Origin: Psammoneis japonica
Lineage: Eukaryota
NCBI GenBank assembly: GCA_008632985.1
Contig: QPGO01000015.1
Coordinates: forward strand, 125,998 to 189,997
Direction of reading: 5' to 3'
Length of the DNA: 64,000 nucleotides
The notes beneath the pieces were generated by a model that did no database searches, had not been told where the DNA came from, and was given only the letters and a program-made list of their open reading frames with translations. A program made the translations under genes and the position numbers. This document shows, piece after piece, positions 1 through 42,503 of this stretch; position 1 is the stretch's first letter, and every line of letters begins with the position of its first letter.

Positions 1-1900
1 CGCACTGATGGAGGATGGCGATGACGGGACCACGCTGGGTCTCAATGACGGCACCAGCGGTGACAACAGGGATGTCCACCAATTGATGATCGTCAATGCC
101 CTGAACGTCAACTTGGCGAGAGGTGCGTGCAATGATGCGAACGTCGTCGCCAGCAATGCCGCTGTTGGCCCCACGATCGACTGGAGCGCCAGTGCGTGCA
201 GAGCGATGAGCAGAGGCAGAGCAAATGACATTGTGGCTGTCAACGCGGCGGCAAGTGCGGCCGTTAAGTTCCATGTCATCTGCAGAAGCTGGCGGGGTAG
301 AGGGAGCGGCGGATGGCCCCGGTCGACTGGCATTGGTGGCTTGGTTGGGAGACAACAGACGTTGCAGATCACCGGGTGGCAGTGGCTTGCGCTTGGTGAG
401 GTGCGCCAGGATGGGATTATCCGAAGTGGCGTCCACATTTGGAGCGGAGTCACCAGAGTCAGCAGGAGTCGTGTTGGACAAGTTGACATCACCGTCACTC
501 CCAAGGCGTTGGTCGTGAAGGTTGGCCGTAACAGACTCATGGCAGTTGCTGGCTCGCGGGTTGCGGGGAGGCGGACGAGAATGCTCAAGGATGATCGCCT
601 TGGAGGAATCGGGCAACGAATCCCAGATCCGTTGGTGGTCGGGGGGGAGACGTTTCCATTGGTCACCGGCGAGGCTGGGACTGCGGGTGCAGGCAGCATT
701 GGCCTGAAGGACGTCAATGTCGCTGTCAATGTCGTAGAACACATCGTCGGACGGTTCCTCGGAGCAGACGTCGTGTGTGTGTGTGGCGCGTCGGGGAGCT
801 CGAGGTGTCGTCTTGGGTTAAAACGTGCTGTTGCACTGAGCTGCCGCGGAGAGGAGCAAGCCACAGCATTGATCGCATGTGAGGCTCTTGCCACTCTGCG
901 TGCGATGCTGATCAGCTTGGTTCTTGACAGCACGGAGTTCCTCGACAGGGTGTGCGGCATTCTCGAGCATGACGCGCTTCTGTCCTTCAGAGAAGTGGTC
1001 ACTGGCCGGGATGAGTGCCTCGCACTTGCGCAACTGATCTTGCCAATGAAGGATGAACCCGTGGGTCGGACCTTTCCAAGTGCCATCACCAAGACGTGCA
1101 GTGGCAAGGTGCGTCAGCAAGGTGGATGACTCAACAGATGCGCGGGTGGAGGCGAGCGCGTGCTCAGACAAGGCGCGGCAGACGGTCTGGGCGTCAGAAG
1201 ACCCCACATTTTCGCGGATGAGAGCCTTGCCCTTGGTGAGAAGGATGCGTTCGAAGACGGCGAACATGTGCTTTTGCTGTTCAGCAAAGAGCAGTTTGTC
1301 TTCGGGGCTGGTTGGTTTGTACGACGAGTCTAGAATGCACTCGACGTCTTGGGCACGGGCTTGTGCCACAAGTGAGGTGTGCCAAGTGTGCCACTGCTTG
1401 TCGGATTTGAGAGCCGTGAAAGCGGTGGGATCACACTTGATGCCTCGCTTGAAGTCCCGCACCGGGTCGCGTGCCTTGGACGGGTTGGTGACATGCGGAG
1501 GTGCAAGGGGTGAGCTGCCGATGGACACAGAAGACATGCAGTCGGGGCTGAGGCGGCAGGCAAGGAACTCGTCATGCGTGAACAACGAGGAGTCATTGGC
1601 AACGTCAAGACCTTTGTGTGCTTTGACAATGTGCAGACTGACTAGAGCTGCTAACATGTTCTTATGACCACGGGGCAAAGGGATCACATTGGTGCCGTTG
1701 TCGCACTCAAGCGAGTCGATTTGGGACGGCATGAACGTGAACAGTTCTTGATGCGAGTCCGCACCGTCTTGGGCCAAAGCCAAACGAAGAGGGCTCCCAG
1801 CACCTTGGGCAAGCACGGTTCCAACAACGTGCTCGAAACCATCGGTTTGTTGCTGACGAGTGAGAACCATGGCAGACAAAAGTGGTGTCAGGACAAGCAA
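1..1900 (-). pseudogene. gag-protease polyprotein of the copia element, with an in-frame stop at 818-820 and many Tyr-to-Cys/His changes
   Basis: Gag and protease share one frame, separated by a TAA at 820-818. Expected Tyr positions read as C/H (QQKHMF, AQTVC, LLTHL, LTCDQCC, LHQCA). Confidence 0.8.
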
Positions 1901-3085
1901 TTCTTGTTGGGAAGCGAAGGTGGGCTTGAAGCTTGGGCGAGAATGGACTTGACTTGAAACAGACTTGACTTGAAATCTTGATCTGTCTTAAAATCAGAAG
2001 TCGCCGGGCTTTGCCATCCCGTTCGTTGTCAAGTGCTAAACTTCCCATCCGGTCCGTAGACTTGTGCCGGCACGTCCGAACCCGCAGCTGGCGGCGCTTT
2101 GGGTTGCTTGCGAGCGGAGCAGCGGGTTGCAAACCCCTGCAGGCAAGCTGACTGGAGGTGGACAAGACCCCCGAACCGTTCTTGTTTTACATCGGTTGGA
2201 TTTCCCGATCAGGCTGGCCAGTTGACGCAGGCGTCAGGCGCTGTGGACGAACGAACAAACGCGGGAAAGCACCCTCGCCCCAATGCAGGCTGCAATCACG
2301 GCCACTTGCTCTCACAGTCGTCCTTGTGGACCCAGCAGAACTGCAGAGCACCAGCAGTCCAGGGCAGATCAGGCACAATGGACTCGGTGTGCTTGCAGAG
2401 TGGTGGCAAAACCGCAGTCCGAAGAGTGGGTGCAGGTTCTTGGCCGTGAAGACATGTGCACACACACATGTCTTCAGCGACGAAGATCCTTGAATGTGTG
2501 GGGTTCTTGACCGTCAACCGATGAATGGGTGCATCAAGGGATGAGGATCAAGGATGGACTTGGATGTGACCGTTGAATGTGTGTCTTCAGCGACCAAAGG
2601 CAGCACAATCAATCCAGATGCCAGCAGCAAGGAGACTTGACGGTGACGTTAACTTCCTGCCGATGCCCTGGTGTTGAATGCGCGTAGACTTGCCGATGTA
2701 TGTAGAACACACACGGAGGTCCACGTAGAATTGAAATAGCGTCGTTGGTAAATCAACGACGATGATGGCGGTTGCTCAATGGGTTGACAATGAGCAAGAC
2801 TGTTGATCTGACAGAAAAATGAAGGCAAATGGCAAGAATTCAAACAACAACTCCTCACTGCTGTCTAAATGGCAGATGAGTCTCCACTCAGAGACCGTTG
2901 CAGGAGCCGAAAGACGTGTGAGTCGGTACAATCGGGCTACTGTTGTCATTCTTGTGAGCCTTGTGGCTCGAAAGCAAACTACATCGCGCGCGAACGCGCG
3001 GAACTAAAGCACACAAAACTGTGCGCGGCAAACTAAACAGCGCGCGATGCTTCGCGCGCACCTAAATCCTGTTCAAATCCTGTCA
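1..3085 (-). mobile_element. Ty1/copia (CoDi-type) LTR retrotransposon, 5' part (putative LTR, leader, gag, protease); continues beyond the left edge
   Basis: The minus ORF 818-1900 has diatom copia gag motifs (DFKRGIKxDPTAF, W..W....AQARAQDV, FILHWQDQLR, MLENA). The same frame at 196-1 reads RTGAPVDRGANSGIAGDDVRII...GIDDHQL, the CoDi protease motif xVDRGAN. The minus strand begins TGACAGGATTT at 3085, resembling a CoDi LTR start. The inner end of the LTR is not resolved. Confidence 0.85.
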
Positions 3086-4760
3086 GCACTTGCCAAGATT
3101 TTAGACGACTCTGATGCACCAAGCAAACAAAGCAGAGAGTTCAACCCAATCCCAGTTGTCACAACATTGGGGACCATCCAATCACAAGCTGCCAAAGCTG
3201 ATCCAATCCCTTGCACTTGACTCAATGAGAGGTTGAAATCCATTCCATGCACTTGCCAAGGCCCTGAAGAGCATTCTGGATGTGAGACAACAAGAGAACA
3301 AGATGCTGAGTGTGATCACCTGTCAAGATTCAAGAATCAGTGTGGCTGAGATGCAACAAGCAAAGGACTGGGAGACAAAATGCTCACAGATTTGTCTTCA
3401 ATGCCAAGGAGTGCCAAGAAGGAATTTCTGCACTTCAAAACAAACTGAAGAAGTCAGCATTCAAGACATGGACAATTTGCCTGTTTGTGGAGAACAGCAC
3501 AATGATTGCTGCTGCAAGAGCTTAAAGAAGAGCTTTGTGAGAGCCTGTGGCCTGGGTAAAGACACCCATCTAAAGACTCTAGAGAAGGCAATGGATGTGC
3601 AACTGAGCCATCTAAAAGACAAGGATTCTTGCAATTGACACAAGAGGAGTGACAACAAGGGTGGCAATGGCAGCAGCAACAATCTTTTTAACAACATGAA
3701 GGGCCAAAGCCATGCCCAGAAGAGCAACCAGAACAACACCACAGTGTGTTGCTTTTGTGGTGTGAACCAAATTGCAAGTTCCAAGACTGCAAGCATTGAA
3801 GAGACATTGCATGTGACAAGTGGTTCAAGATCACAACAAGGAAACCAGACATTGAGGGACAGAGTTGCACACAGACAGGAGTTGGGGATGATGACCACTT
3901 GTTGATGGTGACAATGTGAGTGTCAGCGTCACCAGATCTGACCAATCAACTCTTTTCAGCCAAAGCAGCTGGAGAGTGCTGCATGGCATGGGTTGCAACT
4001 CTTCAATGAAAGACCCGAGACAAGCACAAGCAAAGCCAACAATGGCACACCAAGGTGGTTGAGGAGATCATCCTTGACAATGACTCTGCCTTTCAGCATG
4101 GCAGCAAGCCAGAGACCAGCGCACAATGAGTTGGCAAGGATCAAGATTGATCTGTCCATGAACACAGGAGTGGGCACCCCAGACAAAGACCGCATTCTCA
4201 GGTTGAAGGATGTGAAGCACAAATGCTGCACAACACATGACAGCCAAGTTGGAGAAAAGTTCTGGCTGCCAGACAAGAAGACTGGCAAACAAGTTGTGGT
4301 GTTCACACCTTTGCACCTGGTCAGAAGTTCTTCAAGAAGAAAGTGAGTTGCATGTGAGCATGCTGTCAAAGAAGAAGAAGAGCAACAAGAAGCACAGGAG
4401 TGCATCTGGAACTGCAGCTCTGACAATTGAGCAGAGCTCCATGGGCTGCACCAAGAAGGAGGCAGTGCCAAGTGCTGAGCAAGCACTCAGACTGTGCCAC
4501 AAGGCTGGATCACCCAGCATGAGGAGCTTCAAGTGATTTTCACAATCACATCAGGCAAAGAGCTTGTCCATTGTCTCCAAAGATGTGGACAGGATGGCGA
4601 CCATCTGGGGTCTGCCAACGGATGTGTGAAAAGGCAAGACCAGGCTTGCACATCACTCCCACAAGAGGAACAACATCACAGCTGTCCCACCTGCTGAGAC
4701 ATGCAAAAGAAGCAGAGAGAAGGCATTGATCCTCTGCATTGACATTGTGGAGTCAAGGTT
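3086..4760 (+). mobile_element. Degenerate copia gag/protease-region fragment, same family as 43887-51964
   Basis: Collinear similarity to ~44830-46550. For example, KSLKKSFVRACGLGKDTHLKTLEKAMD matches TSFKKSFIRDCSLGKDTCAKTPEKAMD, and DKKTGKQVVVF matches DKKTGKKVVVF. Confidence 0.8.
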
Positions 4761-5898
4761 TGCAGAGTTAAAAAAAGAAAAGATCTAAATTTTAAGTGCC
4801 ATCACTCTTTTGCCAGCTGTGCTGGTGCCAGCAGATCCACCACACTTCCAGTGCACCAGTGAATTCAGCAGAGCTTGCAAGGATTGGTCAAAGTTGGCAC
4901 CACCTTGCAGCAATGCCCATTTGAGGTAGCTGGGAACAATGAGACAATGCTTTGTGGAGTTCATTGCTTTTGCATGGACTTGAGTCATGGCTGCCATGGT
5001 TCATGTGCAACCATGCCATGTTCAAGAACACTGTCATGTCAAATGTGCACCAACAGAAAGAAGCAAATTCTGACACTCACAGTGCACACACCATTGTGCA
5101 ATGAAGGAACCTTGACTGTGACAAGCACTTTGAGTTTGCCTTTGGTGAATTTGTCCTGTCTCAAGTTGAGAACAACCCAATGAACACCATGGATGCACCA
5201 CATGGCATTGAGAGCTTGCATTTGCAACCATGCTTTGACACTCTGCTGGAGGGCAGCCACTGCACTGTGAACCACACATGGGCAAGCTTCTGAATCCCTG
5301 CAAGTGCACTGCTGTGCCCCTGGCCAACGCGCACATGCAAGCAGTTGTAAAGATGGCCACAGCACAAGAAATCAAAGATTTTAAATTTGTGGACATGCAT
5401 CTGACAGTGTCCATTCCACACAAAAACAAAGATCCTTTGTCTTTGGCATTGTGGTGCTTCTTGCACATGCCCTTGCCTTGTTGAACAAAGTTGGTGCCCA
5501 CAATGAAAAAATCAAGCTCCAACTGGTCATGTTGTTTGCATTTGTTTGGCCCAATTTCTTCCAGTCAAATGCACCAAGAAGAGAATCCAAATCCACGTCC
5601 TTCAATCCTTCAGGCTTGTGCTGCAAGAACTTTGACTCAACATTGATCAAAACCAACTTCCAAGAAACACATCTTTGGTTGCAAAAGTGCCAAAAACATT
5701 GCGGAAAACAAGGAGGCAAGTTGGTGCCTCCTTGGTGCCACCATGATGATTGAGTTGCAGGCTTGTTTTGCTTGAGTTTAGTTTGAGAGCATGATCACAG
5801 ATGGAAAGAATTTCAGCCATGGATGCATTGTGGTTGAGGGCAGACTTCTTCTTTGGATGACGGTGCAGGGACATCATGGTGCAGAGGGGGGGGGGGGG

Positions 5899-6038
5899 NN
5901 NNNNNNNNNNNNNNNNNNNNNNNNNNNNNNNNNNNNNNNNNNNNNNNNNNNNNNNNNNNNNNNNNNNNNNNNNNNNNNNNNNNNNNNNNNNNNNNNNNNN
6001 NNNNNNNNNNNNNNNNNNNNNNNNNNNNNNNNNNNNNN
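5899..6038. other. Assembly gap (N run) preceded by poly-G
   Basis: Run of n characters. Confidence 0.99.
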
Positions 6039-7530
6039 GACATGGACAACAACTTGTCAATGGGGGGCATGCCATCAATGTCACCTTTCAGGTGGGAGAG
6101 CAGAGTGGAAAACTTTTCCTTGACAGACTCAGCAGTGAACTCAGTGGGGAGAAAACCCATGGGAAGAAAAGCCACTGTTGCACTCTTCAGCAACTGGTCA
6201 AAGAAATTGCATTGTTGGTTGAATGCCATGAGGGCTTTGACAGAAACCAACTTCCTCTTCCAGAATTCTTGACAAAATTTGGGAGAGTCAAACTTGTGCT
6301 TGCCACCCTTTGAAAAATGCAGTCCTGCTGAATGTTGGAAAACAATGTTGCACATGAAATTTCCAAATGCAGAGTCATGCTCAGCCCTGGACTGTGTGAC
6401 GCTTGCGGCGGACTGTGCATTGTCAATGACCTGCAACAGTGTGAAATTTACAAAGACAACAAGTGCAAGAAAGGAACAGCACAAAGCCACTGCCCAATGC
6501 CGAGGCCTGTTGCTGTGACATGCCTGCCAACAAAGCACTCCAATTGACTGCTGCCTGCCTTTCATGGCATGAAAACATTGACGTGCCTGTGGAAGCTCTC
6601 ATTGAAGCACTTCAAATTACAATGAAAGATGATGTCTTCACATTTGGAGACACCACACTTGGCACCAACAAAATGGCACAGCAATGGGTGCAGCACTGCC
6701 CACTCCCCTGCATGCCACACTCTGCTGTGTGATCCATGAAGACATGCTCCTGGAGGAATTTAGCCCCCAGCTGCATTGTTGCAAATGCTTTGTCAATGAT
6801 GTCTTTGGCATTTGCAAAATCACCAACCTTGTCACTGCCACTGCCACTGCCACCTGGGAAGCATTCATCTCCAGGCTTGACAATTTTGATGTCACCTGGA
6901 TCACAAGCTCCAGAAGTTGTCAAGTGAACAACTTTGTGGATCTCACCATCTCACTCCAAGGCTCCCACATCTCCACAACACCCTCTGCAAAAAAGAAATG
7001 AATTTGTGTGTCACACCCCACCACACTCAGCACATCTGCCTGGAGTGCTTGCCAGCCCAATCATGGGCATGCTTTTTTTGCTTCAAAAGTCTTTGCTCTG
7101 ACCCAGCTGACGATGCAAAAGCAAAAATGGAGCTGCCCCACCCAGGCTGTGCAAACCAGATGCCACAAGTCCAGCAAACTGCAAACACTCTTCCAAAAAG
7201 TGTGTGATCTCATCTTTGGCAATGCAACAAGAACAGAAGAGCCCCAGTCAAACCCCATCTTCCTGCACATCCTGCACCACCCAAACAACCCACCATCAAG
7301 CAAGCTTCAGAAGCTGCTGCAGAAAGAGGAGCAACGACCAACCCTGTCTGAATGCTCACAACCCCTCTCAAACCTGTGCAACAACATGTGACAGTGCACA
7401 GGACTCAACTGCATGATTGTCTGTTGCAGCCATTTGCATGACCTTGGAAACCTGCTCTGGCACCACAAACTCAGTTTCTCCCATGGCCCCCCAGTTTCAT
7501 CCTGTTGGATTGCAAACAGGGAAGCCACTG

Positions 7531-7578
<48 letters not shown>
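7531..7578 (+). repeat. (AGAC)12 microsatellite
   Basis: Perfect tetranucleotide run directly after the PLE coding end. Confidence 0.95.
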
Positions 7579-7692
7579 CGCACATTGAAATGACTTGAAA
7601 AATCAACAGACCAACTCCACTTGCCTGCCCCTCCAATGCTGCTCAGATCCTTGTTTTAACACAACAACCTCAGCTGCATTGACAACACCAGC

Positions 7693-7740
7693 TGGCCGCT
7701 GATGAAGCTGCTTGAAAAGTCTCACTCTTGACTTTGGCCA
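7693..7740 (+). ncRNA. Type I hammerhead ribozyme, probably degenerate, in the PLE terminal repeat
   Basis: The sequence reads tggccg-CTGATGA-agctgctt-GAAA(A)-gtc-tcactctt-gac-TT-tggcca. It has the catalytic boxes, a 6-bp stem I (tggccg/tggcca) and stem III (agtc/gact). Stem II is weak. Confidence 0.65.
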
Positions 7741-7859
7741 ATGTGTCGTTGTGCTTGTTGTTCACTGAACAGCTGCCTCAGCTGCTTTCTGTTTGTTTGT
7801 CCCATTTCACAGTTCACAGAAAATCAGCTTTGCCAATTTTGTTCATTCACTCAAGACAG

Positions 7860-9186
7860 AGATGGAGAGAAGCACTTGCCCACACTGTCTTTAACAGACT
7901 TCGTTGTTCATGTCTCCATGGCATGTCCCCTGTGGATGAAGAGGCGCCACTTGGTGTGGAGTGCACACAAGAACATTGAGCAGTGGAGCAAAAAAACCTT
8001 CAAATGCACATTCGCTGCTGATGTGCCAATGTTTTCCTGCCATGATGATCCAAACCTGTCATCTGAGATTGGGTGGCATGCTGCAAAAGAGCGCACAAGA
8101 CCAAAGAATGTTGGCAAATTGTTGGGAGCCAAGCTGTGAGACAAGGTGAGGCATGCTGTCATTTCCTTGGAGAACACAACTGTCACAATGAACAAAAGAT
8201 GATGAGTGTGCTGCCAGATCAAGGGGCAACAAACTGCAGTCAGAAAAACATCAATGAATTGCACAGACTGTCAGCGGTCAGCTGTCCTGCCTGTGGTGTG
8301 GATGCATTTGGGGTTTGTGACACCCTTTTGTGCATCTCAACACCAGCCATTTTCCCAAAGTCAAAGCAAGTTGTTGCAGTCTTGTGTGAGGCACCAATGG
8401 CATTGTTTGTGACACCATGAACAAGCTGGATTTGCTCCTCTTCTGCTGTGACATCAACCAAGCAAGTTCTGTGATTTGATGAACTTGCCACAGGACATGG
8501 AGTTCTTTGATTTGACTCCTGAGACAATCAACAGTTGGATCATGGTCCTGATCATTGGCCTGCACCACTGCAAAATTGCAAAAAAGAGGACTCGTCATGA
8601 AGATGAGGAGCACTTTGTGGAGTGTGCACAAGGTGTGATGCACTTTTGTTTGACAACATGGTTGATTGCTCCAATGAGGGATGGCATGCCAACCTGCCAA
8701 TTTCGGACTTGCAGGATGTCAGCACTGAAGCAACAGGTGTGCCTGGTGGCATTGTGGTCACCACACAAGAGAAATCAGTTTTCCCTCAATGCCCCCAGCC
8801 AGTCTGCCAACTGGCAGAACACAAATGCAAGCAGCAAGAGTGTGTTGGAACATCTAGATTGTGGAGTTTTGAAAAACCTGGGTGTGTTGAAGAAAAGACA
8901 TTTTTGCTCCTGATGTGGTTTGATTGGTGACTCATTGTGTGAAAAGTTTCATCATCATCAATCTCTCATGTTTCAGTTTCACATGTCACTCTTTGGAGTG
9001 CATCATTTGGTTTGTGCAATTTGTCATTCAGCATCAGCAGGCACCTGTTGTCATGTGAGAGTTCACAGCTTGCACTGATGCCTTGGGCAACCCACAGCCA
9101 TTGCAGATTGCCAGGGCAAGTGCATCAAGCAGCACAGGAAGCCCAGTGGGATTTCCTTTTGGCAACATTGACTTGCCAGCTCAACA
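7860..9186 (+). mobile_element. 3' end of a degenerate copia element: extra ORF relic, PPT and 3' LTR
   Basis: Homologous to ~50600-51964. cacaagaccaaagaatgttggcaa matches cacaagaccaaaaaatgttggcaa, and EFFDL..ETINSWIM matches EFFEL..GVINNWVM. Confidence 0.8.
8843..9186 (+). repeat. LTR (TGTTG...TCAACA), same family as the LTRs at 43887 and 51462
   Basis: Preceded by a PPT-like GCAAGAGTG. Shares ctctttggagtg..tcatttgg, ggcacctgt and ggcaacccacagcca with the other two LTRs. Confidence 0.85.
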
Positions 9187-10762
9187 CATGCTGCACTGCA
9201 CACTCCAGCTCACTTCACCAGCAAAAAAGGGGCAGCCATTGCCTGTTGTTGCCATGTGGTGAACAAGAAAGGAACATGGCACATGCAATGTCTCTCACAC
9301 CAAAATGATGTGCATTGTGAAAAACAAAGCACTCTCAAAACAAGAACACTCTCTCATCTCAACAGCTCTTCACTCCCTCTGTGCAGCTGGTTTGCAGAGT
9401 GGCCTTTCCTGCTTTGTTTTTCAGCCCAGTGACATGACAACACCAGAGTGCACAATGATGTTGCGCAGTTCAGTTGTGCTGGTTTTTGTTGTTTCCGAAT
9501 GCAAAAGAATGGCACACACAGCACACATGTGTTTGTGTCCAACAACTTGCCACACTTCCTCCCTTGCACTGTCTTTTTTGTGTGTGCAGCTGTGCTTGAG
9601 AAAAAAATTGTTTGTGCCAATCCTGTTTGCAGTGTTCAGAGCCCCTTTTCACTTGTGCACACACCAAAAATGTGTGGTCCACTCATTGCTTCTAGGGGGA
9701 GGGAATGCAGGATTTGGGCTGCACAGAGAGAGAAGTGAAAAGCATTTGCAATGGCTGGGAATGGTGCACAGCAGCTCTCAAGCATGTTGTGAGTCAACCA
9801 CTTGGGTGCACACTTGTGGAGTCCAATTGCACCACATGGCAGATGCCACAAGAATGATGGCACTGCTGCCTGTGGCCCATGTCAAACCAATCAAGAACTT
9901 TTCAATTTCTTGCTTCTTGGTGCAGCAAATTGCAATTTTGGGTGAAGCATCACTGCCAATTTCATTGTCATCAACTTTGTTGTTGCTGCCAGCTTCTCTC
10001 TCTTTTTCCCCAGCAGTTCTTTCTCTTTTTGTCCATTGCCATCGGTGGCCACATTGCTGCTGGCATGTTAATCTGATTGCTGTTGCTGTGTTTTGCTGAA
10101 GCTTGTTGTTGCCACTTGGCTGCTTGAATTCTCAGTCAATCCCTCAAAGAATTCAAGCCAATCACAGCCAGGGGGGTGCATGTGATCTGATGGAGTCCCC
10201 CAACAATGTGCAGCATTTCTTGTGATTCAACTCTCAAGCAGTGTCCAGCAGCATTGGCAAAGACAACAGCAGCTCAACATTGCCACTTGAATTTCTTTCC
10301 AAGGTGCTCCTGCAAAGGGCAATGGCTGCACCACAGTCAAGCTGACATCCCCAAGTCACCACCAACTGTGCTGGTTTCTTCTGCAGATGGTGTCAGTTTT
10401 CCACCTTGTCAACAGTGCACAGCAAGTCCAGCACAGGTCAGTCAGCTGTTGTTTCTGCCTCCAGTCTTTGGCTCTGTCACAAGCATGTTCAGAGAACATT
10501 GTGGTTAAATTCAAGAATTTGCACACAACTGCTGGTTTGTCACATCTTGCGATCACATCGTGAGAACAGCTTGATGTTGGTGGTTTTGCCTTTGGATGGC
10601 AAAATCAATGAGTTGCTCAGCAGTGTCCCCACCAAGGTGGACATGGCAGCACATGATGACAAGCATGCCAAAGATGAGCCTTGATTTGCAGAGAGGGGTG
10701 CAGCATCAATGTGGACGGTGATGGGCCCACCACTGCAAGAAAAGCAGTTGCCTCCTTGCCTG

Positions 10763-10944
10763 GCATGTTTTCAGCAGATTGCTGTGTTGCAAGACAGCAC
10801 AAGGTTGTTTGTCATTTGTTTTGCATGTTGTCAGCAGATTGCTGTGTTGCAAGACAGCACAAGGTTGTTTGTCATTTGTTTTGCATGTGGTCAGCACATT
10901 GCTGTGTTGCAAGACAGCACAAGCTTGTTTGTCATTTGTTTTGC
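10763..10944 (+). repeat. Tandem repeat, 3 x 60 bp
   Basis: The unit gcatgtt.tcagcagattgctgtgttgcaagacagcacaaggttgtttgtcatttgtttt repeats at an exact 60-bp period with few substitutions. Confidence 0.95.
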
Positions 10945-13900
10945 TTTTTGTTGTGCACACTGTTGTTGTTGCTCCAGCTTGCTGTGGCTTCTTCAAAAAA
11001 CTTGTGTTGTTCCATCATGAGGAAGCTGCAAGCAATGCCAGTGCATTGTTGCCATGACATGTGGGAAAGCAGCCACACAACTGAGAAAGACAAAATCTCA
11101 CAAAGACCCTGTGGCAGAGTTCCAAACCAGCACTCTGTTTTGCAACATCATCCAAGAATGGCCTGGTCCACCAGGCTCAAGCAAAGCAGTGATTTTGGAT
11201 GTGCTGTCATTCCACCAGGTTGTGCAGTTGTGATGGATCTTAAGTTTGGCATCACAACATTCAGCAATGCCCAGCATTTTTGCATGTTTGATTTGAGAAC
11301 AACTGCACACATTTTGTTTTTCTTGCCAGATCACATTGTGCCACCACAAAAGCTGGCCCCTTGCATTCCATCCTTGAGCCCAAACTTCAGAATTTGAGCC
11401 AGTTTGGGCTCACCAGCTCCACTTGCCCTGTCAGAGTGTCCAGTGGAATGACCCTGTGTTCTTGCAGCTCTTTGGCTGAGACCTGAGCCAGAGATGCTTC
11501 CTGGTGGCCACACCACCAAATGCCTTTTCCTCAATGAAACAAGAGTGACAGAAAAAAGCCCTCTCAAGCTTTGTCTGGTGGCACATCATCATCCTCACCT
11601 TTTTGGTCATTGGCCTCATGGATTGAGTGGCACAGGTGCTGCCAACACTGTCGTGTCATTTGCCACCTGATTGAGTGGCATTCAGAGCAGCAAGGCAACT
11701 GTCACAGGCATCTCTTGCTTCATCCCCATTGCTGCCTGATTGATTTGTGCTCCAAGCAGACTGGCAATTTTGTCAATGGCTGTCATCATGGACACCATCA
11801 GCCAGCAACAACATTGCTGTTGCTGCACCATCATCCTTCACTGACTCCAACACCCAAAACCTGCATTGCCTCAAACCATCACCCTTGGAATTGGTTTGAA
11901 GAATGTTTGCACCAACATCAGAGTCAATTGTGATGGCATTCTTGGGTCATTGTGATGCCTCATGAATTTTGGTTTCAAACTCAAGATGCACTTTGGCAGA
12001 GATGGGAGCATGCAAATGAGCACCCAGCCCACCTTGTTGTTCCTTTTCCTTGCCTCTAAAAGGAGCCCCACAAGTGAGGGAGATTTGGCAGAGCAGAGTT
12101 AATGTGGTCCCACATGCTTTGATGAGATTCCATGGCTTCACCTTGTTTGCACCTTGCACCTGGTTTGATGCAATCACCAGGTCATTTCAGCACATCATGG
12201 ATCATCTTGCTGCAGCTGAACTGTCAAAAATGGCTCACATCAGCACTGACGCAAAGCCTTCCACCCAATGGTGCTTGGTCTCTTGGCACATGATGCCACC
12301 CAAAGCTTGCCTCTGGGCTTTCTGCAATTGGCACAGAAGTGCAAGAACATGCCATCAAATGGTGTCAACAAATTTTGGATTTAAACCACACTCACCAGAG
12401 TCTGGAGTGCTGTCTTCCACCATTCCAGTGGCACTGCTCACAGGGTGGTGCACCCAAAGCTCCTCCCACATCTGCACTTTCCATCATCAGTGCAGAGGTG
12501 TGATGCTGTGGAGTGGTGTCAAACAACTTAAACATGAGCTGCCTGAGGCCAGGACAGATAAAGTCTTTTGCCATTTCAGCCACTCAGCTCACAGGACAAT
12601 GTTCCCAAAGCTCATCTTCATGCTCTCCATTGCACACACTGAAAAACAAGAACATTCTGCCCAGTGTGGAAACTTGGACACAACCTTTCCATGCTGAGGT
12701 GGATGTCTTCTGTCACTTCAGTCATTTTTGTCTCAGAACCATGTGCCTGAAGCTTGCCTCCTTGCTTGGCATCATCTGAATGGATGGAAGTGCAGCATTT
12801 TGCAAAATGACATCAAACGTGCTGGACTTGAGAAACTGTGTCTGCCAGGGTGGGCATCTTTCACCATTTCCATGGTTTTGCCAAAAAAGAAACCACAATT
12901 CTGGCTCCAAGTGCTGCTGCACTGCTGATCAGAAAGCTGACATTGGCAAACCCACAATTCCAGTGCACTGCAACAGTGCAGCAGCAGAAGCCACTGTGGG
13001 GCTGGCCAAGGTCAGTGCCACCTTGCAGCAATGCTTGCCTGAGGCAACCAGGGACAACAAGACAACACTTCACAGAATTTGTTGCTTTTGGATGGACTGG
13101 AAACATGGCTGGCATGCCACAACAGCAAAGAACAATTGCTTTCAAAATTTGGTGTTTAAGAACAGCAAAAAAGGAGCGAGATCAAAACATGATCACCAAA
13201 TCACTGGCTGGCACACATCAAAATGGGGGGCACTTTCAAACCTCCAAGCAGTGCAGCAGCAGTGGAGAGATCACTGCATGGAGCAGGGATCTTGATTTGC
13301 CAGCAAGGAAGGGAGGAGTTGTCCAGGACTGGGAGATCAGAAATGGGAGCACTTGATGATGTGACCAGTCAGCTGTTGAAAAAAAAACGTTTTTCACACA
13401 CAGAAACCCAAGCTGAATCTTGCACAGAAATGCCAACACATGCAGCAAATGGAAGGCTGTCAATTGGTGCCCAAATGGGACACTTGCACTCATGCTTGTT
13501 GATGCCTCAACAGACTGGTGTCGGGGTTGGCAATGATGTGCACAGTGATCCTGCAAGTGTTTTCCACCATCACAAAAGTTGGCATGGAAACAAAGAAGCA
13601 TGCTTTCCATGGGTGCCAAAGAGGTGGCCAAGCAAGGCATGTCAATGCTGGGAACATTTCTTGTGCAACAAAACATGGTGCTTGATCAACTGTCTTCTGT
13701 TGTGTGTTCTGCCAATGGTGTCTTTCTTTCACAGTGGAGAAACACCAACAACTGGCAGCTGGACCTTTTTGAGATGTGCAGCAGGTGTCACATCCACAAA
13801 AACCATCCAAAGAAGCTGATGCAGCTGCCAAGTGCACATTGTTGCAGAGCTTTTGTTTCAAGCACATTGGCCAAGTGACGTTGCCACAAAAAACTGTGGG

Positions 13901-15559
13901 ACACATTTTTTCATGCTTTTGTGCTTCACAGCATTTTTGCTTGAGTTTTTGCTTGGTGCCAAATGCAGCATCCAAAATTGTTGTGGGAGCAGCTCATGGA
14001 TTTTTCATCAGACACACACTCACACAAGGCGTGAGTGACTCCTTGACCTGATTTTGTGGGAGATCTACAGCCCAGCCCCACCAAGCCAAGCACCTGAGGT
14101 CATCAAACAGCAGACAAACTCCATTCTGGGTGGTGGAAACACCTGCACCTGGTCAAAAATCTTTCACAAAAACCCAGCAGGTCAAATTGTGAGCTGACCA
14201 CACCCACAATGTTTGGCGCATGCAAAACAATCAGCCAAGTGCTCAAGTGAGCAAACAGGGGGGGGGGGGTTCCAATGTGCACACCAGAGCTGCCTGGAAA
14301 ACTCAGAAGCAGTTTTTCTGAGAAAACAGCTCATTGTGAGTGACACAGCACACACACCAAATGACAGTGCAAAAATTGCTTGGGCCAGAATCACTCATGC
14401 TGGTGGATGGGTTGGCCAGTCAGCTTGCGTGATCTTTGAAGAACCACCACATGCAGCAATCTTCACACAGCAGTCTTTTGACCTTGTGTCCAGCAGTGTC
14501 TGCATGTTTTTCCTTTTGTGATTTGCACTGTGAACTGTGCAGGACAATGATTTTGGACACCCAAACTTGACTTGATGCGGGGAATGAAAACAAATTGGAT
14601 TCTCCATTGTTTGGCACATTGAAATGTGAGCATGAAATTGGCAATTTTTGCAGCAATTTTTTCACATTGGGGATTCAACTGTTCTTAACACACACACACA
14701 CACACACAATTGACCATGCAACCAGAGCCAGAGTTGCACTGGCTTCTTTTGGTCCAGGGTGGTTGCTGCAGGTGCAAAGAGTGGGGCACATTGCAGCTGC
14801 AGGAGGGCAACAATGTGACGCTGAGTGTGTGCTGCCAAGCTGAGCAGCCCAGCTTGGTTGCAAGCCAAGCCCTGCCAGGCCAGCTGCCCACTGGCTCCAG
14901 TTGCTCCCAATGTGCATCAATTGTTGAAGGAGCACCACATTGACTCAAAAGCTGTGTTTTGAGTGGGACAGAGAGAAAAAGTTGTCATGTTGGCTGGTGC
15001 TTGCTTCAGACCCTGCATCATGAGTGCAAGCTCCTCTTGAGAAAAGAGCAAGAGACACTGCACACAGTCATTTTTGGCACCTGTCTTTGGTTGCCCACTT
15101 GTCAAATGACTCTTGAACCCAACCTCACTTGGAGTTTTGTCACTTTTCAACCACAAAAGCAGGGCCAACCTTTTGTTGGCTGTTGGCTTTTTTGTGGCTG
15201 GGGGTTGCTGTTGCAGGCACAAATGGTGGGCACATGCTGTGTGGCTGCAGGGCAACAATGTGATGCCAAGCATGTGCAACACACCAAGGAGCCAAGTGAC
15301 TCAGCTCATCTTTGAATGGAGCCCCAGGACAGCAGCCAGTTCTGGGTGTTCCCAGCATGGTTTGCTTGCTCAAGCTGTGCTGCATTCAACCCACACAAGG
15401 CTCTGTGTTGTGGCAGGGTGGCTTGTTGTTGCAAGCCATGAGGAGTCAGCAGTCAGCCAGGGGCCCATCTTGCAAAGGCCACACATGTTGACCCTGCAGA
15501 AAGCTGTGTGCTGAGGGGCCAGGCACAGGGACCTGCAATGATGAATGGCTTCATGGCCA

Positions 15560-15857
15560 TTGGCCCCAAGTTGGCATTTTAATTGAGAGCCAGTGCTGAG
15601 GGGCTGTGAAGTGTGGGGTCAGGAGCCCAGAGCCAGCTCAGCCTGCACTCTTTGTTGATGGCACAAAGTGCTGCTGCAGCTGTCTTTGCATTGCAACCAG
15701 CCAGGTGCAGTTGGCCCCAAGTTGGCACTCAATTGAGAGCTGCTGCCAAGGGGCTGTGAAGTGTGGGGTTGGGCAGTCCAGCCAGCTCACACTCTTTGCT
15801 GACAGCAGAAAGTGCTGTCACAGCTGTCTTTGCATTGTGGTGCCAGCCAGGTGCACA
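15560..15857 (+). repeat. Diverged tandem duplication, 2 x ~150 bp
   Basis: Units start ttggccccaagttggca at 15560 and 15711. Both contain ggggctgtgaagtgtgggg and cagctgtctttgcattg. Confidence 0.9.
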
Positions 15858-18800
15858 TGGCCAGAGCAGCCTTGGCGCATCCTGCTGACAAAGCTGGCAA
15901 AGATGGCAACTCTTGTGGTTGGGCTGGCATGCAGGAGGTCTGGTCACACCCCTGGGAAGTCAAACAGGAAGGAGGACTCAGCATTGCCACCAGCGCCAGA
16001 AATGCCAGCTTGTCTTGAGAGAGATTTGAGCCCACACAGCTCCGAGTTGGGTGTCTTGGCTGGCAGGTTAGAAAACATTCTTGAGCACAGTCTGGCATGT
16101 GGGCAGTGCTGTCACCAAGAGAGCTGCTCTGCAAAGGAAGAGGGAAATGGGCAACAACATTTTGCAAGAACTGCTTTGTCAATGGTCTGATGGGATGGGG
16201 CACCAGCATCTGGATTTTGACAGAGCATTTGGTGGACAAAGCTTGGGCACAGAGAGCTGTCCACTCAAGCTCCACAAGCAGCACATTCCAAAGATGGCAC
16301 CACACATGGGCCATGTGTTCATGCATCAACATGCCTCAAGCTGCAAGTCACATGAAAAACCACCACCAATCTTTCAACCAACCAACGTGGAAAGAACAGG
16401 GCAAGAGGATCAAAACAAGAGCAATTCATTGACTCTCTTTTTGTTTCATGCATTCAAGAGCTTCTTGCCCTTCTCAAATCTTTGATGTGCACTGGTGTTT
16501 TTTTTAATTCAAGTGCAAGGAGGAGTCACTTTTTTTTGTTTCTTTCTCTTGAGGGGCTGTTGTTGTTGGTTGTTGAGCGATGCAATTTTTGTTGTCACAA
16601 TTTTGGAAATGTTGGCAAACCCAACCACTGCTTGATTGTCAACCCATTTGCTGTTTTGAGTCTCTGTGGCATGAAATGCCACAGACTCAGAGCCCTCAAT
16701 TGTTTCATCAAACTCAGTGCTTTGAGGCAGGTCCAACATCAACTTGACTCAGTTGAAATCCCAGTTTGTGGGTGATGAAAAATCATGAATGTCAAACAAA
16801 TGGCTGCTTTTGAGGACATCAAGATGCCCAAGTTTAGTTTGAATGTGACGGTGCACCTCACAGCTTGCAGCCATGACACGTGCAAGCATGCTTTGTTGTT
16901 GTCATTCACCCACTCACATCAAAAATGCCAGCAGATCAAAGTTCAGGAAGAGGATGGAATGCAATTTCATTTGTGGATTCATCAGCAGCATTGGTGCAAT
17001 GACATTTTGCAGCAGAAGCAATCAAAAATTCTCATTCTTCATCACCGGCATTTCTGCATTGCTCAGAATTTGAAATCTGACTGCACGATTGATTTGACAA
17101 GAGAAGTTTTTGAGTTGCAGTGTGTGTCTTTTAAATTGCCAAAATCATCGTGAATGGGCATGAACAGTGTGTGCTCTTTGTCCAACCAAAATTGCACATG
17201 TGTGCTGCGAAGGCATCAAAAAAATTTGTTGGGATGAGTGCTTTTGATCTGGTCTTTGTCACAGTCAATGCCATTTTTAGCACTTCAAACCAAGATCCCA
17301 TGCACTTCCACTTTATGGTTGGTCAACACTTTGTTGATGTCAACAAACCTTGTGTAAATGCCCTTCTTTGCCTTTGCCACCCACGTGCAGCCAGAGTGGC
17401 AGCAAACTCCAAAGCCATCCAATGCCTCTCTGCACTCTTGCACATTGTTGATGTCATCATGGCCACAGCTTTTTGTGTGGTTGCGAGACACTCTCTTCTG
17501 CTGTCCTTGCTGCTGCCAAACTGTTTGTTGCAGTGCAGGCATCTGCAAACCCAAACATCAGCGCCGCCCACCACCTTTTTCGCGGGTTGCTCCACCAATG
17601 CTGGATGACAGTCACACAAGTGCTTGTTCTTAATGGCTTTTGCCCTTTCAACACTTTCCACGCTGCTGTCATTCAACACCCAGTTGCATCCTTGAAAGTC
17701 ACAGCCTGGATAAAATGTTGCGGCACCACATGTTTGGTGGAGTCGTGCTTCACTGCCATCAGGACAAAAGCTGCATTTCTTGATGTGCTCTGCCACAAAG
17801 TCATGCCTGGCTTCAAAAGCACAACCACAATCTTGGCAGCATCAGCAGACATGTGGGCAATTGCATCCAACCATGGCGCCATTGCCAGTCCTGTTTTTGT
17901 TTGTCCATCGGATTGAACAACATCGCTGCACACCCATCATTCGAAAAACAGCAAGAGAGAGCTGTTGTTTCATTGTTTGTGCTGTTTGTGGCTTGCAGCA
18001 GAAGACATCACATTCTGGAATTCACAACAGCTTCAGCGCATGGGTTGCAGTGGTGTGCTCAGCAGGTCTGGCACAAAACTTGACACACCAGAAAACTCAC
18101 ATGCGTTTCTGCACAATTTCAAAAAATTGCATCCAACGCACCTGCGCTCACTTTTTTGCCCAGTGCCGTTTTTCCTTTGCAATTGTCGGCAAACATGCTC
18201 TCTTTTCTGCTGCTTGTTTGTGCTGGCACATGTGAAGCAAGAATCAGGCAAGCTGGTTTGCATGCATTGCCCCCCACCTCTAAAATGACCCCTCTTCTCA
18301 TCCTTGGTGGCCCCCCTCTTCTTTGATGATGCCTCCAAATGCCAGGTCTCATGAGAGCAGTGCTTGAATTTTTGCTTGGAGGCCTGTGTCACCTCCTCCC
18401 ATTTCTCTGCTGCTGAAGCATCTTGGGCAATTTGGCGGAACTCAATCTGGGCATTTTTCTGTGTGCCACATCTCTTGGTTGGCTGGGCTCTGATGTTGGC
18501 TTTGTGTCGCAGTCGTGGAAATTGGGGTGCGATCATCACAGTCGGCAATGGCAAGCATTGTGACAAACAGATCATTTTCACACCCAAACAAGAAAGACAA
18601 AGCAGCCCCCATGAGAGACACTGGCTTCAACGCCTGATTGGACGGGCTCAAACAAGCCCAGCTCGCTGACACTTTGGCCCTCCATCGACCAGGGTGCCAA
18701 GCCCTGTGTCAATCCAAAACTGGCTGCAGCAACAAAATTTTCCAGGCAATGCCAACAGCTGTCCTGCATGTCTGTGTTTGTGGTGATTGCTTCACAAGAC

Positions 18801-19582
18801 ACGTGGGCCAGGATCCCACCCCGTGGCCAAGATTGTGGTGTTCTCTCCTTTCTCCTTTTGCCAATGTTCTTGCACTTTGATTTCTGCTGCGTCTCATGGG
18901 CACAGACCCCTGAAAACCTGTCCAAAGCAATGTGGCGCTCAATGAACAGAATCAATAAAAAAAAGTTCCTTTGAAATCGATGGTGTGTCCATGAGGCAAA
19001 AAAAAATTGTTGGGACGAGTGCTTTCGATCTTTCTTGTACTTTGATTTCTGCTTCACATCAAAATCCTATTCCTTGCAATATGGCGCAGAGGAAGCGTGT
19101 TGGGCTCATAACCCAAAGGTCCAAGGATCGAAACCTTGTATTGCAATCTTTTTGTAAATGCCGTTGATGACTAAAGTGGTGCGACGTCGCGTGAGGAGGG
19201 CTGATTTTCTTTACAATAACTGTTTTGCAAAATGCATGTACTGTAGTTTGTGTTATCTGCGAAGTAGCAAACACCATGTTTGAAATTGCGAAAAGCAATA
19301 CTCTAGTAGAGAGTTGCGTTTTCCAACGAAGCGAGAATGCCACGTGTAGCTCCACTTCTCTTACGTTCATTTTCTACCGCGTTCCACGTGCGTGTGGTCC
19401 ATCCCCGTCGCGCCCCACATGAACACCGCAAAAATGGCACACCAACAAACAACGAAGAGCTCAGGCAACACTGAACACCGCTTACTGTGTAGCTCTAGAG
19501 TAGCCACACACATTTGATCTCAAGACGACAGCGTATCCCCGAAAGCAACTCACTCTTCAACACTCTCAATATTGTTCTTGCC

Positions 19583-39330: not shown

Positions 39331-39334
39331 GCAA

Positions 39335-42300: not shown

Positions 42301-42503
42301 CTGCAAAGGTTGCTGGCCAAAATGCAGGCATGACAAGACTTGAAGGGAGTCATTGTTGTTGTTGTTTTTTATGACAGCACATTGTCAGCTCTGTCATCAG
42401 CATCAAGAATGCCAAATTGCATCAGCATTGATCGTGATGTTTGTGGTGTTGTGCACAAAACACGAGTGAGACAAAAAATTTTGTCCCGCAGGTGTGGAAA
42501 AAT
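39335..42503 (+). mobile_element. piggyBac-like DNA transposon, degenerate, with an exonuclease-transposase coding region
   Basis: Transposase motif DESMILHKG.AITFVQCMPAKPIKHG.KAFALC and second Asp motif CVDNCCT, plus a C-terminal Cys-rich domain. Degenerate TIRs are ctctttccgcacc (39335-47) and ggtgtggaaaaat followed by TTAA (42491-42507). An inverted ctcgtgtttt/aaaacacgag pair lies at 39358 and 42457. Confidence 0.85.
39685..42343 (+). pseudogene. DEDDh 3'-5' exonuclease + piggyBac DDE transposase + Cys-rich domain, frameshifted
   Basis: Exo I-like FIFLDDLETSG...ILQL, Exo II-like VVWNGQTCDMEWI and Exo III-like AHNFLVDCKA occur in 39685-40917. The transposase is in 40814-41692 and later fragments, with CIAC...CLRCNELVCKGC at 42140-42343. 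Confidence 0.8.

Follow-up and report, generated by a model that had tools for sequence, protein, structure and literature searches.

The question raised by this locus is whether the loss of TA dinucleotides from mobile DNA is a process in its own right or a by-product of the decay of methylated CpG. The window (the whole stretch of DNA that was analysed, 64,000 nucleotides from the diatom Psammoneis japonica) begins within a copia-like element. A preliminary description had put this element at about 15–20 TA dinucleotides in 2.6 kb by eye and had called it still CpG-rich, and dinucleotide counts agree on both points: positions 1–2650 feature 15 TA (o/e 0.12) and 186 CG (o/e 0.88), with CA and TG at o/e 1.50 and 1.43, respectively. 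Genic 2-kb windows (20–34 kb and 56–64 kb) have TA o/e values of 0.45–0.86, and the GC-matched genic window at 30001–32000 (GC 0.547) has a value of 0.55. The older relics had been described as having lost both dinucleotides, which holds for 4–17 kb and 36–54 kb, with TA o/e at 0.01–0.08 and CG o/e at 0.04–0.25. Over all TA-poor DNA, TA o/e is 0.01–0.15 and CA/TG o/e is 1.4–2.0. The footprint of 5-methylcytosine decay, which is CpG depletion with an excess of TpG and CpA, is present in the relics and is absent or slight in the copy at 1–2649. The results support the view, proposed in the preliminary description, that TA and CpG are lost by separable processes and that the former loss is no by-product of the latter, in that the element is TA-poor yet has kept its CpG. 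Homologue names at 35–46% identity, together with a plastid-type signal, likewise point to a diatom-like alga as the host, whereas an Atlas search with RPN11 returned no informative taxon.

The element occupies 1..3085 on the minus strand and probably represents the 5' portion of a copia-like LTR retrotransposon of very high copy number, comprising the outer LTR end, the leader, gag and the start of pol; it is cut by the window start. Its end had been placed at 2650; the repeat unit actually reaches 3085, where the outer end (...TGTCA) is seen and behind which the contigs diverge. The outer LTR part (2650..3085, minus strand) belongs to the same repeat unit as gag and pol, and contigs carrying the family majority bridge 2185–2803. 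This part features 14 TA (o/e ~0.4), a CG o/e of ~1.1 and the highest contig depth, a combination that speaks against a simple rule by which all repeats are struck. Neither the second LTR nor the inner LTR boundary falls within the window, and the age of the copy cannot be derived because the window has one LTR only. No second copy of the 1–3100 element is present within the 64-kb window. The summed contig depth of the family is 45,000–360,000 versus ~62–69 for exact single-copy contigs, which places it in the order of a thousand single-copy equivalents. The read data are four runs from one sample, and these runs may be the data behind the window's own assembly, so that they cannot count as separate confirmation of its letters.

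The gag reading frame (818..1987, minus strand; Met at 1868–1870) is followed by the N-terminus of pol (2..817, minus strand), which features the protease-like motif GAPVDRGANSG. A single in-frame TAA (818..820, minus strand) lies between the two. This stop is private to the copy or its sublineage: place 820 is G in 99% of the family depth, which gives CAA instead of TAA, and the frame of the relatives is open at this site. As evidence of youth, the almost intact gag-protease frame noted earlier is weak, because TA loss removes TAA and TAG; even so, a single stop interrupts the 662 codons of the gag frame, versus 6–32 in the remaining five frames. There are 37 relatives of gag, with identities up to 54%, and gag as well as the protease-like block DRGANGG...IQGIDNH is conserved in relatives; the DRG triplet is native to the clade. 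The nearest Atlas clusters to the pol of the relatives are diatom clusters with copia-type families, in which RVT_2 occurs in 44% and gag_pre-integrs in 19–39% of members, and these neighbours serve as leads only. A weak retroviral-integrase match follows the protease in one relative (residues 929–1040, E 0.03). Pfam searches returned no match for the element's gag and pol N-terminus, and none at E ≤ 1e-5 for the 1,356–1,375-residue frames of four relatives or the 376-residue frame of the metagenome relative L002; at E up to 1, three of these relative and L002 frames gave one chance-level match. No reverse transcriptase or integrase is found inside the window.

The codons of the element reveal what became of its TA sites. 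Fifteen alignment columns are Tyr in at least 60% of relatives, 11 in gag (37 relatives) and 4 in the pol N-terminus (9 longer relatives picked from the 37), and of these columns the element encodes Cys in 8, His in 4, Phe in 1 and Tyr in 2. Conserved columns other than Tyr are kept in 193 of 234 cases (Fisher p 5e-8 against Tyr). The losses consist of 12 transitions (TAC>TGC 8 times and TAC>CAC 4 times) and 1 transversion, so that the Tyr-to-Cys/His changes noticed earlier apply to 12 of the 15 conserved Tyr. The change from ALVDRG to APVDRG through CTA>CCA is likewise confirmed: the window codon at 182–184 is CCA, the relatives have Leu in 7/7 cases, 91% of the family contig depth has at place 183 the letter that gives CTA, and Pro is thus private to this copy. 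In gag alone, 10/11 conserved Tyr are lost and 9/10 CGN-Arg codons are kept, and over both parts 16/17 CGN-Arg codons are intact relative to the relatives. Loss per site is therefore 12/15 for the TA of Tyr codons versus 1/17 for the CpG of CGN-Arg codons (p 3e-5).

These codons bear on the proposal that TA is simply disfavoured by native composition or selection (codon usage, a TA-reading nuclease or transcript stability), with no special mutator. The mildly low TA of host genes agrees with it, as does L002 (497 codons), which has kept 11 Tyr TAs and has only 4 TAs at other codon positions; the purging of synonymous TAs with retention of Tyr indicates that selection is involved in that relative, and the same pressure plus selection would give this outcome. 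The proposal is already contradicted by the replacement of near-invariant Tyr residues (36/37 and 34/35 relatives) with Cys or His in the element. It is also at odds with the erasure of non-coding, dead relic DNA to a TA o/e of 0.01–0.08, with the sharp edges of the TA-free DNA, and with a more than 40-fold range of TA survival by flank (TTAA 0.753 versus GTAC 0.017, with no ATAC or ATAT left). Codon-usage bias was rejected, and an origin in composition or selection as a whole is extremely improbable.

A second proposal, in which the decay of methylated CpG, or the repair of that decay, takes TA away as a side effect, was weighed using 128 windows of 500 bp over the 64 kb. Both dinucleotides are lost in 64 of the 128, a coincidence that such a side effect would produce. 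However, TA is lost with CG kept or half kept in 13 windows (the element and 12 further ones), which already contradicts the proposal, and no window among the 128 has lost CG with TA kept. Both dinucleotides are normal in 48 windows, all outside TA-poor stretches except for 2501–3000, which is the element's outer LTR part. Additionally, 10 metagenome relatives feature the reverse pattern, CpG decay (CG o/e ≤ 0.2) with normal TA (o/e 0.44–0.78), and the conserved codons described above lost TA far more often than CpG. A side effect of CpG decay is thus next to impossible. Among 54 related metagenome loci TA o/e is 0.27–0.85 (median ~0.65), and the element lies below each of the 54, which suggests that TA erasure is specific to the host rather than to the clade.

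The preliminary description had further proposed that TA erasure is faster than CpG decay and precedes it. The first part holds per site, as given by the codon comparison. Precedence with copy age does not follow from the data, since the family as a whole shares some of the deficit in TA and since CpG retention may track the reach of methylation. At 3/3 island borders CpG runs on for 0.4–1.5 kb into TA-free DNA, and since CpG persists past the TA edges its retention may reflect methylation reach rather than age. CpG decay is thus slower per site than TA loss and acts over a slightly smaller domain.

Comparison with other copies separates what this copy acquired from what its family shares. Copies of the family differ by transitions at 451 places and by transversions at 143, and the family-majority contigs are ~3% different from this copy in the coding part. 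Loose bounds from the best-supported 40 of 600 differences give the family majority a TA o/e of ~0.16–0.42 over 1–681 and 0.07–0.52 over 530–1428. Part of the TA deficit is a trait of this very-high-depth family, and much of it may have been inherited rather than acquired in place. Changes private to the copy affect at least 5 of 20 TA sites versus 6 of 192 CpG sites (p 0.0014), again among the best-supported 40 of 600 differences, and CA<->TG double differences between this copy and the family number at least 6. At double-difference sites variants have shares of 24%, 55% and 60%. The codon at 779–781, the sole Cys/His codon resolved across the family, is His in the window and Cys in 24% of the family depth; rows 780 and 781 are equal in other-depth, and hence no Tyr variant was seen at this codon. 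Active copies with the same Cys/His residues had been named in advance as evidence against the proposal of a faster and earlier TA erasure, and such sharing with other copies was found in part, at 779–781.

The shared deficit could also be explained by editing of transcripts (A>I next to U) that reverse transcription would make permanent in each copying round, with the family becoming TA-poor while it replicates. RNA adenosine deaminases prefer U before the edited A (bioRxiv 10.64898/2026.01.13.699255, Discussion), the deficit is partly common to large fractions of the family, and the shares of 24%, 55% and 60% show that mutated copies multiplied. However, sense-strand editing gives Tyr>Cys only, and 4 of the 12 changes are Tyr>His. 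Three further observations oppose it: TA is also erased from a piggyBac DNA transposon and from relic DNA of no recognisable type, repeat pairs within the window have TG|CA discordances that arose after duplication, and the TA-free DNA reaches the island borders. Editing of sense RNA was rejected on the Tyr>His changes, the piggyBac erasure and the repeat-pair discordances, and RNA editing in general is very improbable.

Two TE-relic islands carry the same footprint beyond the element. The first (3086..18955, no strand assigned) has TA and CG erased with CA/TG o/e of ~1.9–2.0, and CpG is partly kept at 17384–18955; it includes an assembly gap at 5899–6038, and exact single-copy contigs lie over 3064–4292, 4385–5126 and 5277–5800. 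The second (34972..55003, no strand assigned) has TA erased throughout and CG erased except for the edges at 34975–35386 and 54352–55000, with CG also partly kept over a piggyBac relic. The TA-free DNA ends abruptly at 18956, 34971 and 55004, adjoining genes. The relic at 40793..41689 on the plus strand is a piggyBac-type transposase (DDE_Tnp_1_7), which was aligned with 28 of the best 29 among 1,713 HMMER matches; a protein search found no relatives of it among longer proteins. None of its 7 conserved Tyr remains (Cys replaces 5, His 1 and Arg 1), and 5/9 conserved Arg are kept. Because this relic lost 7/7 conserved Tyr, a DNA transposon is struck as well as a retroelement, and TA loss does not depend on reverse transcription. 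Among the 164 relic frames that span 90 codons or more, a Pfam search of the longest 134 gave only piggyBac and four chance-level matches, and the identified remains in the islands are copia-like and piggyBac. Across the 64 kb there are 82 open frames of at least 150 codons. Erasure of TA removes TAA and TAG and so produces long open frames in dead transposon DNA, a possible source of false gene calls; in addition, it makes LTR elements look too old when they are dated by transitions.

The strand and flank rules were determined from the islands and their repeats. Between repeat pairs within the window TG|CA accounts for 100 of 319 double-difference dinucleotides, the next class being 18, and both strands are struck by TpA loss. 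With genic DNA as the reference, no ATAC or ATAT site survives, and relative survival is 0.017 for GTAC and 0.753 for TTAA. By class, RTAY sites number 2 versus 279 and YTAR sites 75 versus 148 (chi-square 209, p 4e-40) against a genic baseline that need not match the composition of the ancestral TEs, although the pooled relatives are similar in this respect (RTAY 2417, mixed 4249, YTAR 1593). At pyrimidine-preceded Tyr codons the outcome is TG in 6 cases versus CA in 1, which is a weak pointer. Enrichment of product tetranucleotides was tried as a way to split the -2 from the +1 flank effect and was set aside, as it is confounded by CpG-derived TG and CA.

These rules bear on a proposal in which a heritable modification of TpA in silenced DNA, N6-methyladenine (6mA) or of the hydroxymethyl-uracil type, leads to A>G or T>C through decay or miscoding. 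Such a modification would parallel 5-methylcytosine at CpG, since palindromic TpA can be maintained on both strands, with RTAY as a possible recognition site. The symmetric target with both strands affected, the domain-like distribution with sharp edges and the palindromic form of RTAY itself all agree with it, and the hydroxymethyl-uracil of dinoflagellates favours TpA. Known eukaryotic 6mA, however, is located at ApT, and AT is not depleted in the relic windows (o/e 0.67–0.98). The ratio of 6 TG to 1 CA at pyrimidine-preceded Tyr codons suits an agent that reads T-A-pyrimidine on one strand no less well than one that reads a palindrome. A heritable modification is unlikely on this evidence.

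The explanation that we consider probable is a DNA-level process that is confined to mobile elements, acts on both strands, depends on the flanking bases and is distinct from CpG decay. The process would turn TpA into TpG or CpA on either strand (A:T>G:C transitions), its targets being mobile-element DNA, i.e. the copia-like element at 1–3085 and the two neighbouring TE islands, and it would end sharply at host-gene borders. RTAY sites would be nearly eliminated, YTAR sites would survive and TTAA would be left almost untouched, with the CpG>TpG/CpA decay of methylated cytosine present as a separate process. The footprint, its specificity for TpA, its action on both strands and on a DNA transposon besides a retroelement, its independence of CpG and its flank rule are direct observations. 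The family presumably went on multiplying while its TpA sites were consumed. A plausible if tentative candidate for the agent is an adenine deaminase of nucleic acids that works on DNA, producing A>I, with I read as G. The window is a natural lead to a DNA adenine-editing activity, and simple oligonucleotides would suffice to try the flank rule (RTAY versus YTAR/TTAA) on candidate deaminases or modifying enzymes.

Known systems differ in how closely they match. Ascomycete RIP is likewise a dinucleotide-directed transition hypermutation of mobile or repeated DNA that leaves saturated relics. RIP turns CpA into TpA, so that TA rises and CA/TG fall. Fungal RIP was rejected because the direction here is the opposite, with TA lost and CA/TG raised to an o/e of up to ~2. 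Decay by deamination of 5-methylcytosine is shared with this locus in that CpG>TpG/CpA loss is seen both in the relics and among family copies; it leaves TpA untouched, however, and here it stops short of the edges of the TA-free islands. ADAR-type editing of animal retroelement RNA resembles the process in being A>G with U/T preferred before the edited A (bioRxiv 10.64898/2026.01.13.699255, Discussion), and differs in being an RNA-level, sense-strand-only activity of animal enzymes that is fixed via reverse transcription, whereas the present footprint lies on both strands and extends to a DNA transposon. The diatom CoDi elements (PMC2806351), for which CpG methylation of diatom elements has been noted in the same source, resemble the element as copia-like LTR retrotransposons in a diatom, and the Atlas neighbours of its relatives' pol are diatom clusters of copia type. 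In contrast to these, the element is known without reverse transcriptase or integrase in the window and has no Pfam match in gag. A literature search returned no report of TpA erasure in diatoms, including term searches in the accessible text of PMC2806351 and bioRxiv 10.1101/2025.10.24.684338.

The closest known counterpart is found in the chlorarachniophyte Bigelowiella natans, whose integrated viral DNA is hypermutated from TpA to TpG or CpA. In mutation-accumulation lines of B. natans, Mettrop et al. (bioRxiv 10.64898/2026.01.13.699255) reported that A>G and T>C make up 230 of the 231 mutations found in two viral integrations and that TpA is the site of every one of these GC-biased changes. 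According to the preprint text, integrated NCLDV and virophage DNA is hypermutated, the process is active in some lines only, an ADAT2-like deaminase is a candidate, and TpA-poor clusters rich in CpA and TpG occur genome-wide and are enriched in RT and DDE domains. The two systems share TpA>TpG/CpA transitions on either strand and TpA-poor, CpA- and TpG-rich clusters in foreign or mobile DNA with host genes spared, and by this analogy the same kind of targeted hypermutation would be at work in both. They differ in that the B. natans process was measured live in a viral region that is mildly depleted (Rho TpA 0.45), whereas the diatom provides a footprint only, saturated (o/e 0.01–0.08) across islands of 16–20 kb, which shows a strong flank rule and can be compared directly with CpG decay. 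The preprint text, when searched for these terms, mentions neither CpG nor diatoms nor flanking bases, and its supplements may hold context data. If the process is the same, the mutator is not limited to one chlorarachniophyte, and a major phytoplankton group would have a second, A:T-directed arm of defence beside cytosine methylation. A broader and more speculative reading, which may or may not hold and which we put forward with some reserve, is that TpA-directed hypermutation is a defence shared by distant SAR algae (diatoms and chlorarachniophytes), with its own rule of attacking T-A-pyrimidine (RTAY) and sparing TTAA, and independent of cytosine methylation. Transposons would answer it in dinucleotide space: one relative purged its dispensable TAs and keeps its Tyr codons, and the window's family, having lost even these, would be out of targets and hypermutation-proof. 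To the preprint text the window adds relics at saturation level, the comparison with CpG decay and the flank rule.

The copia-like LTR retrotransposon at the start of the window (1-3085, minus strand) is represented in the window by one copy with one LTR. Its gag frame lies at 818-1987 with a Met at 1868-1870, and the N-terminus of pol (2-817) continues on the same minus strand, in frame with gag beyond a single TAA at 818-820. A Pfam profile search of gag gave no match; a protein search found 37 gag relatives with identities of up to 54%, and in the alignment of the pol N-terminus the DRG motif is native to the clade. The element had been described as ending at 2650, however, public contigs of the family diverge behind 3085 (...TGTCA) and the majority contigs span 2185-2803, therefore the repeat unit ends at 3085. 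Dinucleotide counts in 1-2650 gave 15 TA (observed/expected ratio, o/e, of 0.12) and 186 CG (o/e 0.88), with CA and TG at o/e 1.50 and 1.43. Genic 2-kb windows within the 64 kb have a TA o/e of 0.45-0.86, and the genic stretch 30001-32000, which has a similar GC content to 1-2650 (0.547), has a TA o/e of 0.55; the TA deficit is thus 4- to 5-fold beyond any composition or coding effect in this genome.

Conserved codons indicate that this deficit is mutational. Gag was aligned with all 37 relatives and the pol N-terminus with 9 longer relatives picked from these, and a column was called Tyr when at least 60% of the relatives have Tyr. The 11 Tyr columns of gag are occupied in the window by 1 Tyr, 6 Cys, 3 His, and 1 Phe, whereas 115 of the 139 remaining conserved columns are kept. 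The 4 Tyr columns of pol hold 2 Cys, 1 His, and 1 Tyr, compared with 78 of 95 other conserved columns kept. Pooled, Tyr is kept in 2/15 columns versus 193/234 for the others (p 5e-8), which bears out the Tyr-to-Cys/His changes noticed in the preliminary description, as 12 of the 15 are now Cys (8) or His (4). The replacement codons are only TGC or CAC; TAC>TGC, a sense-strand A>G, occurs eight times and TAC>CAC, a sense-strand T>C, four times, so that both strands were struck. Conserved CGN-Arg codons in gag and the pol N-terminus are intact in 16 of 17 cases, with one now TGT, so that TA was lost from 12/15 Tyr codons versus CpG from 1/17 Arg codons (p 3e-5). The Pro of GAPVDRG (codon CCA) is Leu in 7/7 relatives and place 183 reads CTA in 91% of family depth, which directly confirms the proposed change of ALVDRG to APVDRG through CTA>CCA.

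The family was followed in contigs from four sequencing runs of one sample, which may be the data behind the window assembly. At 80% likeness over 1-5800, 8,108 contigs aligned, 1,688 of them with a likeness of 99% or more; exact contigs with a depth of 62-69 cover relic DNA at 3064-4292, 4385-5126, and 5277-5800. Summed contig depth, which is not a copy number, is 45,000-136,000 over 1-2716 and 271,000-360,000 over 2717-3104, and at face value it gives a family of the order of a thousand copies. Three very small runs assemble 1-3104 only, which fits a high-copy family. The outer part of the LTR (2650-3085) is the most abundant piece of the repeat unit and keeps 14 TA (RTAY 2, mixed 7, YTAR 5; R, purine; Y, pyrimidine), with a TA o/e of ~0.4 and a CG o/e of ~1.1. 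Possible readings of this part are a promoter region that was spared, a module gained recently, and DNA 5' of the transcription start. A 3-base in-frame insertion behind 1234, relative to this copy, makes up ~45% of family depth in run X1, and the three small runs have it in their contigs as well.

Between majority-type (low-coverage) contigs and this copy the difference is ~3% in the coding part, compared with 7-9% in 2185-2800. Context classes refer to the 40 places listed among 600 that differ. Among these 40, a family TA is TG in the window at 7 places (183, 347, 1666, 2556, 2566, 2581, and 2920), a family TG or CA is TA at 3 (419, 820, and 1643), a family CG is TG or CA at 8, and a family TG is CG at 1; there are six CA<->TG double differences, and 9 further rows fall outside all these classes. 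On the plus strand, all seven private TA losses listed are A>G, and none reads CA against TA, which may be chance. For majority differences within 1-2649, again among the 40 listed, this copy lost at least 5/20 TA versus 6/192 CpG (p 0.0014). At that rate the six double differences cannot plausibly derive from CpG, with ~0.1 expected by our own estimate. The TA o/e of the majority contigs can be given as bounds only, about 0.16-0.42 (1-681) and 0.07-0.52 (530-1428). Place 820, in the sole stop TAA, gives CAA in 99% of family depth, so that this copy is dead through a private nonsense change at 818-820. The codon at 779-781 is Tyr in 8/9 relatives, CAC in the window, and TGC in 24% of family depth, and the contigs contain no Tyr variant of it (identical other-depth in rows 780 and 781). 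A single ancestral TAC gave rise to both codons within this family, and each form went on to multiply.

Among 500-bp windows of the 64 kb, 64 have lost both TA and CG, 48 have lost neither, 13 have lost TA with CG kept (6) or half kept (7), and 3 show intermediate TA; no window combines CG loss with kept TA. At three island borders with host genes TA returns abruptly (18956, 34971, and 55004), and the border zones 17384-18955, 34975-35386, and 54352-55000 are TA-free with CpG at moderate to normal density. Because CpG persists 0.4-1.5 kb inside TA-free DNA, TA loss and CpG loss differ in spatial domain as well as in rate. The preliminary description had proposed two separable processes in which TA erasure is faster than, and precedes, methyl-CpG decay. 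Separability and the faster TA loss are upheld by the conserved codons and the private losses; precedence does not follow, since part of the TA-poor state belongs to the family as a whole and CpG may have been kept for spatial reasons.

Within the relics only one gene can still be recognised, a piggyBac transposase (40793-41689, plus strand), which was compared with 28 relatives. Conserved Tyr is lost in 7/7 columns (5 Cys, 1 His, 1 Arg), conserved Arg is kept in 5/9 (the others being 2 His, 1 Cys, and 1 Lys), and of the remaining conserved columns 73/91 are retained. Tyr makes up 0.33% of residues versus 4.63% in the relatives, and Cys 9.0% versus 1.9%. Since a DNA transposon is affected too, a route needing reverse transcription is excluded. 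A comparison of six repeat pairs inside the window gave 319 double-difference dinucleotides, of which 100 are TG|CA, with the next class at 18; this discordance is the mark of the same ancestral sites resolved independently, in place, after duplication. Because TAA and TAG are erased, dead transposon DNA in the TA-erased stretches (1-2649, 3103-18950, 34975-55000) has many long open frames; the 64 kb hold 82 frames of 150 codons or more, on both strands, and those inside the relics reach 453 codons. Such frames would mislead gene callers. The stretch 44001-54000 is strongly skewed towards A over T (AT skew 0.12-0.29) and CA exceeds TG (752 vs 624 in 44-50 kb), possibly from a strand bias of both deamination-type changes or simply from ancestral composition. 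Relic island 1 (3086-18955) contains an assembly gap of 140 N at 5899-6038.

Survival of TA depends on its flanks. With reverse complements pooled, 117 surviving TA in 38.5 kb of erased DNA were compared with 946 TA in 25 kb of genic DNA. Measured against the genic sites, survival is 0 for ATAC and ATAT, 0.017 for GTAC, 0.024 for ATAG, 0.033 for CTAC, 0.049 for ATAA, 0.12 for GTAA, 0.15 for CTAG, 0.27 for CTAA, and 0.75 for TTAA. Erased versus genic counts are 2 versus 279 for RTAY and 75 versus 148 for YTAR (chi-square 209, p 4e-40), and the pooled relatives have a similar flank baseline (RTAY 2417, mixed 4249, YTAR 1593). Lost Tyr codons that follow a pyrimidine in gag, the pol N-terminus, and piggyBac became TG six times and CA once, a weak pointer that the pyrimidine 3' of the mutated A may matter most.

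The 54 related loci on metagenome contigs have a TA o/e of 0.27-0.85 (median ~0.65) and a CG o/e of 0.02-1.17. Ten of them (L013, L018, L020, L022, L029, L031, L032, L037, L040, and L043) have a CG o/e of at most 0.2 with a TA o/e of 0.44-0.78; in these other hosts CpG has decayed and TA has not been lost, the reverse of what the window element shows. L002, the closest gag relative on a metagenome contig (46% identity), is TA-poor at 801-3516 (TA o/e 0.04-0.21, CG o/e 0.35-0.53). Its 497-codon frame has 11 of 15 TA in Tyr codons and 1 + 3 at the other two codon positions, compared with 38 : 29 : 48 by codon position in 1,046 codons of the related locus L003. L002 resembles an element that faces the same TA pressure but has remained under selection.

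The host genes in the window are intron-poor and encode polyubiquitin, RPN11, a beta-catenin-like protein, an MFS transporter, two HSF, two Lin0512 paralogues, and fibrillin. The host is not Bigelowiella natans (B. natans), the genes of which are intron-rich. The beta-catenin-like protein matches diatoms (Seminavis, Thalassiosira, Skeletonema, and Cylindrotheca) at 35-40% identity; the best matches, outside these named diatoms, reach 46%. The fibrillin N-terminus has a signal peptide followed by GFAF, which we take to be a complex-plastid targeting signal, and the clusters nearest to relatives of the element in the Atlas are those of diatoms. On these grounds the host is called a diatom-like alga. 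At 56345-58090 and 58083-60320, the two adjoining HSF-type DNA-binding genes and the two adjoining Lin0512-family genes look like tandem paralogues. A 924-codon frame at 30145-32919 has PT repeats and internal repeats.

The footprint is probably best explained by TpA-directed hypermutation at the DNA level, which would have changed A:T to G:C in mobile-element DNA to saturation in a diatom-like alga, with a slower, differently targeted CpG decay running alongside. No report of TpA erasure in diatoms was found in the literature searched, including term searches of two diatom TE papers. Hoguin et al. (PMC9998398) relate diatom DNMT4, of unknown function, to the fungal RIP enzyme; this kinship was set aside as evidence because the direction of change differs from RIP. 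The precedent is B. natans. The main text of a preprint (bioRxiv 10.64898/2026.01.13.699255) reports that 231 of 302 nuclear mutations in mutation-accumulation lines fell in integrated giant-virus and virophage regions, and that 230 of these 231 were A>G or T>C, all on TpA, at ~6e-7 per site per generation and in some lines only. The same source describes 124 TpA-poor, CpA+TpG-rich clusters in the genome, an enrichment of RT and DDE domains in TpA-poor genes, and an ADAT2-like DNA adenine deaminase as the proposed agent; in a term search of the main text, supplements aside, neither CpG nor diatoms nor flanking bases came up. Both cases point to TpA-directed A:T>G:C hypermutation, which was seen live in the B. 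natans lines and is read here from a sequence footprint. Unlike in B. natans, the host here is a diatom-like alga and the erasure appears to have been carried to saturation.
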